Both the position numbers and the translations under genes were made by a program. Shown one piece after another: positions 3,348 to 45,598 of a stretch of DNA of 64,000 nt. Under the pieces are notes generated by a model. That model was not told where the DNA came from. It did not search any database and saw nothing but the letters and a program-made list of their open reading frames with translations. The stretch comes from Escherichia phage EAWsc9, in sequence record PQ341120.1, one strand, 5' to 3'. Each line of letters starts with the position of its first letter. Position 1 is the stretch's first letter.

Positions 3348-3581
3348 TTAATCCTTGGGAGTTAACTCAATTGTAAAATATAGATTAGCATTATCCACAT
3401 GATAACGGTAATCAACGTTATTATCCGGCGAAGTAAATTCCAGATTCCGGACGTTTAAAGGGTCGATATCAATTGGAAGACCTTTTATGTCTCGCAGATA
3501 AAGTTTAATGAAATATGGGAGCGCAGTAAAGTCTTCCTCGATTTTATCTAAAAAATCGGTAATATCAAATTGATGTTCCAT
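3348..3581 (-). CDS. hypothetical protein
   Basis: minus ORF (track 3348..3599); internal start [11 protein letters not shown] at 3581 reduces overlap with gene 55. Confidence 0.3.
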
Positions 3582-4122
3582 ATAAAAAATCCAAATCACC
3601 TTCTTTATCTTTGGCGCTCTTATCAGACCCTGGCGCTTTAACTAAAGAGGATTCGTACTGTGTCATTTTGTCATAGATGTCCTGGATAAATGTTTCATCA
3701 GCCAGAGCCACCATATCGTCGTCTCGTGAATCATACACGTTATGAACGAAGTAGCTATATTTCTTTGCCATTTCTTTACGTTCTTTTTTGATACGCTGAA
3801 CGAAAGCATTGAAGCAAGCCATTGTTATGTAAGCATGTGGATTATCGTATTTTGTTTCGTCGAAGTTATGAAGACCTTTTATTGCGGCCTCAATTCCGTC
3901 TGCAATCATTTCTTGCTTCCAGGATTGGGTATATCCGGAGAAGTTGAAACGTTTGCTAAGACCTTCGGCTATAAGCATAATTGCCAGACCAATAACATCG
4001 TTCTGGCGAATAATTTTATTCGGGTCGGTGTTCGCATTCAGCTTCTGTTTCCACTCCGAAATAGCTTTCAGAAGCTCTTTATTATTTACATAGTTATTCT
4101 TGGTTAATTTAATTTCGTTCAT
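3565..4122 (-). CDS. 55: gp55 late-transcription sigma factor
   Basis: 185 aa; motif block [39 protein letters not shown] matches T4 gp55 from memory; same length as T4 gp55. Confidence 0.9.
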
Positions 4123-9675: not shown

Positions 9676-10145
9676 TTTAAACTCTTTCTAAGCTGCTTCT
9701 TAAATGAAGCCATTAATTGTGTTTTGGTGTCAGATTCATTATAAGTCATACCATTCAAAAGCATTTCCCGAATCATTTCTTCTTTCCCCAGACGACCGAA
9801 CTCTTTGGCTTTGTCTGTTACAAAATTGGGGTGAATATTGTTTTCGGTATAATCAGATTTCAGATAGACAAGCAAACTCTCTAACCATTCCAGGTAGTCA
9901 ACATCGCGACTTTTCAGACCCGAACGGCTGAACTTATGCTTCATTTGTCCTTCTGTCCCATTGCACAGATTGCATAGTAACCCGCGAACCTTACCAGCTT
10001 TTGGCCCGTTCAATTCGTGGTCATGGTCAAGATGGTTGGCCTGAACATCGGAGTCCAAATCACGGTGGCAAATTGGACACTTACCAGCTTGTGCATCATA
10101 AAGTTTTTGTTTTTCTTCTTTGTATAATTTGCCAGTCAACAACAT
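9672..10145 (-). CDS. 49: gp49 endonuclease VII (Holliday-junction resolvase)
   Basis: 157 aa; MLLTGKLYKEEKQK...HLDHDHELNGPKAGKVRGLLCNLCN matches T4 endo VII from memory, same length. Confidence 0.9.
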   Translation of the reverse strand: MLLTGKLYKEEKQKLYDAQAGKCPICHRDLDSDVQANHLDHDHELNGPKAGKVRGLLCNLCNGTEGQMKHKFSRSGLKSRDVDYLEWLESLLVYLKSDYTENNIHPNFVTDKAKEFGRLGKEEMIREMLLNGMTYNESDTKTQLMASFKKQLRKSLK

Positions 10146-10183
10146 AATAAACCCTTACCATTATTAGATAAGGGTATTTATTA
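10146..10183 (-). promoter_or_regulatory. 5' leader hairpin covering the gene 49 ribosome-binding site, with a late-promoter-like AATAAATA box
   Basis: inverted repeat accctta(10151-10157)/taagggt(10169-10175) on the plus strand; on the mRNA the AAGGG Shine-Dalgarno lies in the 3' arm; AATAAATACCC overlaps the 5' arm. Confidence 0.45.
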
Positions 10184-27887: not shown

Positions 27888-28375
27888 TAATATGCGTCAA
27901 AAGTTCCGGTGCGGAAAGTTTCAATAACTCGTTTAGCCCGGTTCGGAGTCTGGACTTTATACCATCTTGAGTCTGCCAGTTCCTTGGCAGCCGCTTCCCA
28001 TGATTTAGCCTTCAGCAATCGCATACCCTTAGGAAAACCAGCAACACCAGCAACACCCATCTGGAATACCATATTAATGAGTGCACAACGACGAACTTCA
28101 TCAAGTACATCATAAACAGGTTTTAAGACAGGATGTCTCAAGATTCCGGCTTTAGCCTTTTCGACCGAACGGTTAAACAGTGTTTCGGCTTCGTGCTGGG
28201 TTATACGACCATTACAGACGCGACCCATGAGCTTATCGAGCTCGGCGCGAGCAACATCTTTTGATGGGTTCTTAGTTATCAGTTGCCCGATACCAATGGT
28301 CCAATAGCCTTCAGTATCTTTATACAAATCCAACTTACAACCTTCATCTATGCGTAACATTTCGAATATATTCAT
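27887..28375 (-). CDS. e: lysozyme (endolysin, T4 e-type)
   Basis: 162 aa; [12 protein letters not shown]...[13 protein letters not shown] with catalytic E11/D20/T26 context; matches T4 lysozyme from memory. Confidence 0.92.
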
Positions 28376-28403
28376 AATACCCCCTTATATAGGGGTATTT
28401 ATT
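28376..28403 (-). promoter_or_regulatory. 5' leader hairpin covering the e ribosome-binding site, with a late-promoter-like AATAAATA box
   Basis: plus aatacccc(28376-28383)/ggggtatt(28392-28399) inverted repeat directly upstream of the e ATG; AATAAATA on the mRNA strand at 28396-28403. Confidence 0.5.
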
Positions 28404-28860
28404 ATCCGAAAATTTGAGTCATTACCTTGTACATCGATTTGCCCATCACATACTGCCATTGACTCGGTTTAATCAGAGCAAATGCATCGAACTCTGGAAC
28501 CGAACTACCATCCGGAAAGGTATGATAGGCAGAGCATTTACTATGTCTGAACTGCTCATGCTCGACCGGAACCGTGTACAAAAACAGGTGAAGATTTTTG
28601 TTATCTGAATAACGGAACTCACCTAAGTCTTTTAAGAATGCTGGGTCGTATTGGGTAAACCCGGTTTCTTCTTCGGTTTCACGGATAGCCGCTTCAATCG
28701 GGGATTCACCAGCTTCAACATGACCCTTAGGGATGTCCCATTTGTGTGCAGGCATACCTGGTTTACGAGAACCAGTCACACGACCCATGAATAACTCTTT
28801 ATCTTCAGTCATGAAAATAATGCCGGCGGATAATTCTTTCACCTTGTTTTTCTTACTCAT
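28402..28860 (-). CDS. nudE: NudE Nudix hydrolase
   Basis: ATG at 28860 gives 152 aa; Nudix box GHVEAGESPIEAAIRETEEETG. Confidence 0.75.
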   Translation of the reverse strand: MSKKNKVKELSAGIIFMTEDKELFMGRVTGSRKPGMPAHKWDIPKGHVEAGESPIEAAIRETEEETGFTQYDPAFLKDLGEFRYSDNKNLHLFLYTVPVEHEQFRHSKCSAYHTFPDGSSVPEFDAFALIKPSQWQYVMGKSMYKVMTQIFG

Positions 28861-32862: not shown

Positions 32863-33144
32863 TTAACATTCAGCAGAAGAGGACACCCAACCACCATTTT
32901 CCAGGTCAGTTGTATAGTCATGAGTATTAACAATAGCCCATTCAGGATGACCATGTTCTTCCCAATGAGCAAGGTCAGCTTTCAGGGCGCCAGGAGAATA
33001 ATAGTCACCGCCCATACCGCGAGCAGGGTATATATTAAAATGAGTCTCATATTTGTCTGCAATTTCCTCGGCACGACGAATAGCTTTATGGATGTCATTT
33101 ACTGCGTTAGCCAGTTCTTTATTTTTACGGTAATCATTCATCAT
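32863..33144 (-). CDS. small protein, C-terminal W-V-S-S-S-x-x-C tail family member B
   Basis: 93 aa; ends ...NGGWVSSSAEC; shares EEIADKY segment with member A. Confidence 0.45.
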   Translation of the reverse strand: MMNDYRKNKELANAVNDIHKAIRRAEEIADKYETHFNIYPARGMGGDYYSPGALKADLAHWEEHGHPEWAIVNTHDYTTDLENGGWVSSSAEC

Positions 33145-33153
33145 AACGTTTCC

Positions 33154-33444
33154 TTAGCACATTGCCGAAGAGGAGACCCAAGCACCAACTGTAACGACAC
33201 CGTTTTCAACTTCACCGCCGTTGTTTTCAATTTCATCTTTAAACCACTGGGAGCACTCATAACCGACAGGATAATATGTACGGCCTGAACCATAATCACC
33301 GGTACCGAATTGGATACCATATTCATCTGCGATTTCTTCACAGTGTTTTTCAATTTCAGAGGTCTTATTTAGAAGAGAATAGATGGCTTTTTCTGCAGAT
33401 TTCTCATCATAATACTTGGGGATAGCAATTTCAATTTTATTCAT
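33154..33444 (-). CDS. small protein, C-terminal W-V-S-S-S-x-x-C tail family member A
   Basis: 96 aa; ends ...VGAWVSSSAMC; AAGGAA RBS. Confidence 0.45.
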   Translation of the reverse strand: MNKIEIAIPKYYDEKSAEKAIYSLLNKTSEIEKHCEEIADEYGIQFGTGDYGSGRTYYPVGYECSQWFKDEIENNGGEVENGVVTVGAWVSSSAMC

Positions 33445-44501: not shown

Positions 44502-44947
44502 CCTTTCCATCCTAATTTTTTCAGTGAGTTTTCAGTGATTATCCTGAACGTTATACCCATTTTATCTGCGGTAGCTTGCGCAGCTTTCCATTTGTCAGAG
44601 TTAACACTCCAGGTGTACATCTCGTTAATAAATCTCTTTTTACTCGCGGCTGTATTATTAACTGGCTTGGTTGGAGGTCTTGTTTCTTTTAATGGCTTAA
44701 CTTCGAAAAAGAACTGTTGTCCTGTATCAAACTTAACCCAGAAATCCATATAATATCTGCGCTTTTTCCCTTCAGCATTGCAGAAGTATGGAATAATCAC
44801 AGTCTCAGAGCCCCATTGAACAACGTTCGGATGGTTGTCGAGCCATCTCATCAACCAAGCCTCCCAGCTTGACCGGTATTGTATTTTCTTCCAGTCGCCC
44901 TTATATTTTTCTATATTAGTGGGCTTAAATTTCCCGGAGTATGCCAT
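44498..44947 (-). CDS. 4: gp4 head completion protein
   Basis: 149 aa; [18 protein letters not shown]...; position and size as T4 gp4. Confidence 0.8.
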
Positions 44948-44995
44948 ATAGCCTCCTAATAAATATTGATATACTTATTTATAAATGGAGGCTTT

Positions 44996-45598
44996 ATGCT
45001 TTTTTCATTTTTTAACCCAATTGATTATGATGCTAAAACAATCAGAAAAAACTCGGCATCATTAACGAAAGAAGATGTCTTAAGCATCCCAATGACTGAC
45101 ATCTTCAGAAACTATCGTGCGTATTTTGATAAGGTTGCGGTTAATTATACACCGAAAACATATTACATCGCCGGAGCTCCGAGACCTGAAGAACTTGCAT
45201 ATCAGCTCTATGGTAATACTCAACTCTATTGGGTTCTCCTTATGCTTAATAATATCTATGACCCGTATTATGGTTGGATATGTTCACAAGAATCATCATA
45301 TCAGGCATCAATTCAACGCTATTCGAATATAGGTGGTAATCAGGTCCTTTATCATGTAAATGAAGACGGTGAAAAATTCTGGAATCTTGTTTCTTATCCT
45401 GATAATCCATACATATGGTACGATAAAGGTGATAAGAACAAATTATACCCACAGTATGAAGGCCCATTAGCTGCAGTGGATATCTACGAAGATGCTATTC
45501 GCAAAAATGAATATAAACGAGAAATAAAGATAATCGACCCTAATGATATCGAATCATTTATTTCGGCATTAATCCGCGAGATGGAGAAGGCGCTATGA
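44996..45598 (+). CDS. 53: gp53 baseplate wedge protein
   Basis: ATG at 44996 behind TGGAGG gives 200 aa starting MLFSFFNPIDYD; MTDIFRNYRAYF and YPQYEG blocks match T4 gp53 from memory. Confidence 0.85.
   Translation: MLFSFFNPIDYDAKTIRKNSASLTKEDVLSIPMTDIFRNYRAYFDKVAVNYTPKTYYIAGAPRPEELAYQLYGNTQLYWVLLMLNNIYDPYYGWICSQESSYQASIQRYSNIGGNQVLYHVNEDGEKFWNLVSYPDNPYIWYDKGDKNKLYPQYEGPLAAVDIYEDAIRKNEYKREIKIIDPNDIESFISALIREMEKAL

Follow-up and report, generated by a model that had tools for sequence, protein, structure and literature searches.

The window analysed here is a 64,000-nucleotide stretch of DNA from Escherichia phage EAWsc9 (PQ341120.1), and the coordinates of its relevant features are collected in Table 1. 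Its lysozyme region shares 98.4% identity with Escherichia phage vB_EcoM_RZ and 93–98% with VR7, SP18 and ECML-359, and the window is that of a Gaprivervirus (Straboviridae, Tevenvirinae), a relative of T4. By its Pfam match, synteny and DNA identity the lysozyme gene is the orthologue of T4 gene e; the orthologous region (98% DNA identity) is annotated as 'e lysozyme murein hydrolase' in related phage records, and the gene order is nudE-e-denV, with denV next downstream of e. A mere 26 nt separate nudE from e, and this gap is wholly filled by a T4-type late promoter box and a hairpin. The minus-strand genes upstream of e overlap or abut one another over approximately 3 kb (in a crude ORF-based gene call), and a consensus terminator scan finds no minus-strand terminator-like site between nudE and e. 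Because the gap is only 26 nt long and consists entirely of box and hairpin, transcripts of nudE must enter the e leader. From the packing of the genes and the absence of a terminator we infer that early transcripts from promoters further upstream read through into e; in T4, long early transcripts do reach into e (PMC3014915).

Table 1. Features of the e leader and related loci in the 64,000-nt window.
Feature	Position	Strand	Basis
Gene 55 homologue, late sigma factor	3565..4122	-	PHROG 234 'late sigma transcription factor', E = 3.7e-68
Gene 49 orthologue leader	10143..10182	-	Pfam PF02945 + PF09124
Gene e, T4-type lysozyme, 162 aa	27887..28375	-	Pfam PF00959 Phage_lysozyme, E = 6.5e-13
e start codon AUG	28375..28373	-	Sequence
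Hairpin 3′ arm GGGGGUAUU, Shine-Dalgarno core and spacer up to AUG	28384..28376	-	Fold
Shine-Dalgarno core GGGGG	28384..28380	-	Sequence
Hairpin loop AUAUAA	28390..28385	-	Fold
Hairpin 5′ arm (anti-Shine-Dalgarno strand) AAUACCCCU	28399..28391	-	ViennaRNA fold
T4-type late promoter box AATAAATA, -13..-6	28403..28396	-	Sequence
nudE stop codon TAA	28404..28402	-	Sequence
nudE, NUDIX hydrolase, upstream same-strand gene	28402..28860	-	Pfam PF00293; ECML-359 annotation

The minus strand from 28410 to 28370 reads UUCGGAUAAUAAAUACCCCUAUAUAAGGGGGUAUUAUGAAU, with the element itself at 28403..28373. Written 5′ to 3′ the leader is GGAUAAUAAAUACCCCUAUAUAAGGGGGUAUUAUGAAU, and its parts follow one another in the order AATAAATA-CCCCU-AUAUAA-GGGGGUAUU-AUG. 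An earlier note, made from the sequence alone, had placed a hairpin over the lysozyme ribosome-binding site here, and both its coordinates and its sequence layout prove exact on the minus strand. Folded with ViennaRNA, the 31-nt leader forms a hairpin of 9 bp at -13.1 kcal/mol, essentially the 8-bp stem that had been described, with eight Watson-Crick pairs and a closing U-G pair. All five G's of the Shine-Dalgarno (SD) sequence are paired, one of them – a G specific to this clade – with the C at 28393 in the 5′ arm. The earlier placement of the whole AAGGGGG sequence in the 3′ arm thus holds for the five G's, while the two A's lie in the loop. The nudE stop codon is 3 nt upstream of the 5′ arm. 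Rfam has no family at the e leader, and the sole match within 900 nt is a chance one to a microRNA (E = 0.68).

The late promoter box is embedded in this arrangement at both of its ends. AATAAATA shares its first two bases with the end of the nudE stop codon, and its final AATA doubles as the outermost four bases of the hairpin 5′ arm, in agreement with the near-consensus late box that the earlier note saw overlapping this arm. The T4 late promoter consensus is TATAAATA at -13..-6, in which T(-13) is poorly conserved among T4 relatives (PMC1524935), and A(-13) is the commonest natural deviation among T4 late promoters (9 of 50 sites; PMC2988020). As a sequence AATAAATA is not a poor box, A(-13) being an accepted variant, and the same octamer is present 29–30 nt before the ATG codons of late gene 53 and of gene 49 in the same window. 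The core ATAAATA is under-represented in the 64-kb window, with 14 copies (seven as TATAAATA and seven as AATAAATA) against 24 ± 4.8 expected, and 98 of 100 shuffles contain at least 14; given this depletion, a single occurrence is informative. The depletion also fits selection against stray late promoters.

Application of the -13..-6 rule predicts a late transcription start at A28390, which is the first base of the loop and lies 3′ of the entire 5′ arm. With the box so placed, a late RNA would begin AUAUAAGGGGGUAUUAUG and contain no part of the 5′ arm. The proposal that late transcripts initiate within the stem therefore needs adjusting, as the predicted start is just past the 5′ arm, and its consequence, the loss of that arm, is the same. 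The trans-acting factor required by such a switch is gp55, which recognizes TATAAATA-type promoters, and a homologue of its gene is present in the window.

We propose that the e leader is orthologous to that of T4 gene e and constitutes a translational lock whose state depends on transcript length; on the combined grounds of orthology, energetics and conservation we put the probability of this reading at about 0.85. Prior to late transcription, RNA from promoters upstream of nudE and its neighbors would cross the 26-nt gap into e. In such a long RNA AAUACCCCU would pair with GGGGGUAUU, burying the SD sequence right up to the AUG codon, such that 30S binding would be blocked and lysozyme would not be made. 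Once gp55 becomes active together with gp33 and the gp45 clamp, polymerase would start at the AATAAATA box with A28390 as its first base, and the resulting short RNA (AUAUAAGGGGGUAUUAUG...), in which the 5′ arm is missing, would have an open ribosome-binding site and be translated. By orthology and from the T4 experiments, we expect early transcripts of this phage to read through into e, late ones to start at the predicted point, and the two to differ in translation. The lock would prevent premature lysis, the lysozyme message being present early and the protein coming from late transcripts only.

The T4 precedent is well established. Long early e transcripts of T4 form an inhibitory structure according to McPheeters et al. 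(1986, NAR 14:5813), as their work is represented in PMC3014915, and the same source describes comparable leaders in close T4 relatives, where the 5′ strand again contains the late promoter; the mechanism has been shown experimentally for T4 e, and its conservation in these relatives is predicted (PMC3014915). The element is thus already known in kind, and conservation among close T4 relatives was noted by a 2010 review. This is textbook T4 biology to which the Gaprivervirus case, an ordinary one for a T4 relative, adds no new principle. Its practical use is modest, one gain being confirmation that annotation of late promoters and leaders carries over to Gaprivervirus. A literature search on the e leader of VR7, SP18 or Gaprivervirus found nothing relevant.

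The energetics of the leader are those expected of a switch. We expressed accessibility as the opening energy, the ensemble free-energy cost of making positions -11..+3 single-stranded; an SD accessibility measure over -14..-5, a range mis-set for e, had ranked e 42nd and was superseded by it. A calculation of folding energy had been suggested in the earlier note as a check on the hairpin, and beyond the -13.1 kcal/mol given above it yields an opening cost of 14.7 kcal/mol for long leaders of 45, 100 or 200 nt, compared with 0.95–3.2 kcal/mol for RNAs starting at 28388..28391. The T4 leader (AF158101) behaves alike, at 15.4 kcal/mol for the long form and 4.1 and 2.1 kcal/mol for its two late starts, and the isolated hairpins are of nearly equal stability (-12.1 kcal/mol in the window and -12.3 in T4). 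By these computed measures the leader in the window matches the experimentally characterized T4 e leader in both structure and energetics. The match to T4 gene e control that the earlier note proposed is therefore supported by orthology and by the hairpin and opening energies, as well as by the leader conservation described below.

Comparison of the two leaders reveals both shared and divergent features. The gene is orthologous and stands in the same nudE-e context, and in both phages the 5′ strand contains the late box and the 3′ strand the SD, with a UAUU spacer before the AUG. There are several differences. First, T4 has two TATAAATA boxes, the second of them in the loop, whereas the window has one intact box, with A at -13; the loop and its flanks (UAUAUAAG, 28391..28384) contain TATATAAG, in which the second TATAAATA box of T4 survives in degenerate form. 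Second, the SD is GGGGG in the window and GGAGG in T4, a change compensated by a C in the 5′ arm of the window. Third, the loop is 6 nt as opposed to 8 in T4, and the stem 9 bp as opposed to 11. Fourth, the nudE stop codon overlaps the box in the window, and the nudE-e gap is 26 nt compared to 37 in T4. Finally, the lock of T4 is known from experiment, and that of the window is predicted from sequence and computation.

A purine-rich SD beside an AT-rich promoter box could in principle give rise to a palindrome by chance, with no function at all. Shuffling of the 31-nt leader lends this some substance, as 8 of 200 shuffles fold equally well (z = -1.85); this is a weak control, however, because runs of C and G survive the shuffling. 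When a 61-nt context is shuffled only 1 of 200 is as good (z = -3.24). Moreover, folding of the segment from -35 to +6 at 113 crude gene starts across the window placed e first, at -13.1 kcal/mol where the average was -3.75 (sd 2.5). Gene 49 ranked second, and e and 49 are both among the T4 genes with documented inhibitory structure at their start regions (PMC3014915). A simple scan for unusually structured starts thus recovers two genes that are documented cases in T4.

The conservation of the leader effectively refutes a chance origin, to which we assign next to no probability. Within Gaprivervirus, 30 of 32 records share the 50-nt leader at 100% identity, despite surrounding sequences (1 kb) that are approximately 89–98% identical. 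Of the two exceptions, the one that was read, TH54 (locus L075), has a single extra A in the loop (at the equivalent of 28385..28390) with stem, box and SD unchanged; TH57 likewise shows 98% identity. When IMG/VR was searched with the lysozyme protein, 71 loci were identified, of which 31 are T4-like and contain 17 distinct leaders. In all 17 – folded as single sequences – NATAAATA is followed at once by a hairpin in which the SD is the 3′ arm and SD positions 1–4 are paired. ATAAATA is invariant in the 17 leaders, and the base preceding it varies between T, A and G.

The stems also differ among relatives in ways that preserve pairing. Leaders ending in GGAGGUAUU-AUG, which include those of T4 and the window, have outer AAUA/UAUU pairs, whereas in those ending in GGAGGUCCU-AUG these outer pairs are lost and inner UAUC/GAUA pairs are gained. 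In a structural alignment of 16 leaders, fitted to the structure by hand, 82% of cells are paired, compared to 35–56% when the partners are slid by 1–3 columns, and three stem pairs are changed on both sides. One of the three lies at the middle SD position, where 15 leaders have U-A and the clade of the window has C-G, a natural compensatory change that supports the T4 structure model. The support from covariation is modest, supportive rather than decisive, as most stem positions are already constrained by the box and the SD. A MAFFT alignment of the 17 leaders analysed with RNAalifold gave only five pairs and no covariation; it is uninformative because the 5′ sides of ACUCC and ACCUCC leaders are shifted in register by one base.

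The hairpin could alternatively be a transcription terminator, either of the early nudE RNA on the minus strand or of antisense transcription on the plus strand, and the consensus scan does score plus-strand positions 28381..28405, CCCCTTATATAGGGG followed by TATTTATTAT, as terminator-like. Several considerations make this very unlikely. First, what follows the stem on the minus strand is AUGAAUAUAUUC and no U run, and the scan makes no call there. Second, the plus-strand tail TATTTATTAT is interrupted by A's and is probably the complement of the late box. Third, the only plus-strand ORF for several kilobases around the site, of 122 aa at 32920..33288 (a crude ORF call), lies downstream, and there is thus no plus-strand unit that ends at the hairpin. 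Fourth, the 3′ arm is the SD in every relative, and a terminator would not need one. The GC-rich stem with a directly following U run that characterizes Rho-independent terminators is not found here.

A second alternative is that the hairpin serves RNA stability or processing, for example as a shield from RegB or RNase E, and plays no part in timing. The phage RegB nuclease targets and cuts the motif GGAG, which is located within the stem in most relatives, and the closest annotated relative has regB in the syntenic region downstream of e. In the clade of the window the sequence is GGGGG instead, the only such SD among the 113 start regions; the e leaders of every other T4-like clade examined contain GGAG. 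The stem is nonetheless kept in this clade, which has no GGAG, so RegB protection cannot explain its retention; the constant late box in the 5′ arm, furthermore, is explained by a lock and not by stabilization. We regard a role restricted to stability as no more credible than a terminator.

On long transcripts a further structure is predicted. A candidate outer helix of 9 bp pairs UUUCGGAUA (28403..28411, at the end and stop of nudE) with UAUUCGAAA (28368..28360, e codons 3–6), and would enclose the SD hairpin. It appears in both the minimum-free-energy and the centroid folds as a prediction, and is possible on long transcripts only. The T4 e leader has no counterpart of it, and covariation is uninformative for it, as the clade is invariant at 28403..28411 and 28360..28368.

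This outer helix bears on the possibility that the lock is leaky through translational coupling, with ribosomes that finish nudE at its TAA unwinding the hairpin and allowing 30S loading or re-initiation at the e AUG. There would then be low e output whenever nudE is translated, and the hairpin would tune the amount of lysozyme without blocking it fully. The geometry is suggestive, in that the nudE stop codon overlaps the box and adjoins the stem with the e AUG 26 nt downstream, and the last nudE codons form part of the predicted outer helix, which nudE translation would open too. The T4 layout is similar, however: there the nudE stop precedes the first box by 4 nt and the stem by about 8 nt, and T4 early transcripts still give approximately 100-fold less lysozyme (PMC3014915). 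The strictly conserved stable stem also argues for a real block. We consider such a leak improbable; if present, it would modify the lock without replacing it.

It is similarly doubtful, although conceivable, that the Gaprivervirus lock differs in kind from that of T4, through an SD that as GGGGG would be exempt from RegB and an outer helix that would make opening dependent on nudE ribosomes. Were this the case, the GGGGG sequence, paired via its compensating C, would still wobble-pair with 16S rRNA, and the GGAG site for RegB would be gone. Our preferred reading remains a lock of the T4 type.

The window contains a second leader of similar design. In T4, inhibitory structures at the start region are described for e, 49 (endonuclease VII), soc and I-TevI (PMC3014915). 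The leader of the gene 49 orthologue has a AATAAATA box at 10182..10175 and its ATG at 10145, and a stem in which ACCCUUAUC (10175..10167) pairs with GGUAAGGGU (10159..10151) over the SD. Its fold is -12.1 kcal/mol in the ranking of start regions, and a 56-nt segment folds at -14.9 kcal/mol (z = -3.5). The T4 gene 49 leader, of which this is the copy, follows the same logic as that of e, although the gene is different and the stem sequence unrelated. Barth et al. are said to have described in 1988 a long T4 gene 49 transcript that gives a shorter protein from an internal start. In T4 I-TevI the late promoter adjoins the 5′ part of an RBS-sequestering hairpin, which keeps read-through RNAs of the early and middle periods untranslated (PMC3014915). 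I-TevI, the homing endonuclease of the td intron, differs in that the purpose is the protection of splicing, and it has no sequence homology to the e leader.

Leaders of more distant e-type lysozymes (30–66% protein identity) were seen in IMG/VR loci L051/L052, L054, L070 and L028 and in phages Av-05 (L074) and S16 (L076). These have a box of the form xATAAATA, or an Aeh1-type CTAAATA, in or adjoining the 5′ arm of a hairpin that has the SD as its 3′ arm. Av-05, a member of the Vequintavirinae, has both a nudix-lysozyme gene pair and a near-T4 leader, AATAAATACCTCCTATAAACGTAGGAGGTATTATG. Judging by these sequences, the device seems to reach further than the close T4 relatives named in the 2010 review.

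Late boxes are also seen within an inverted repeat elsewhere in the window. Between gene 53 and gene 4, at 44940..45010, two divergent boxes, AATAAATA at 44958 on the plus strand for gene 53 and TATAAATA at 44983 on the minus strand for gene 4, lie inside the repeat AGCCTCC...GGAGGCT formed by the facing SDs of the two genes. Folding gives about -18 kcal/mol for each strand (z = -3.6 and -2.9), and the repeat may be a by-product of two identical, opposed SDs.
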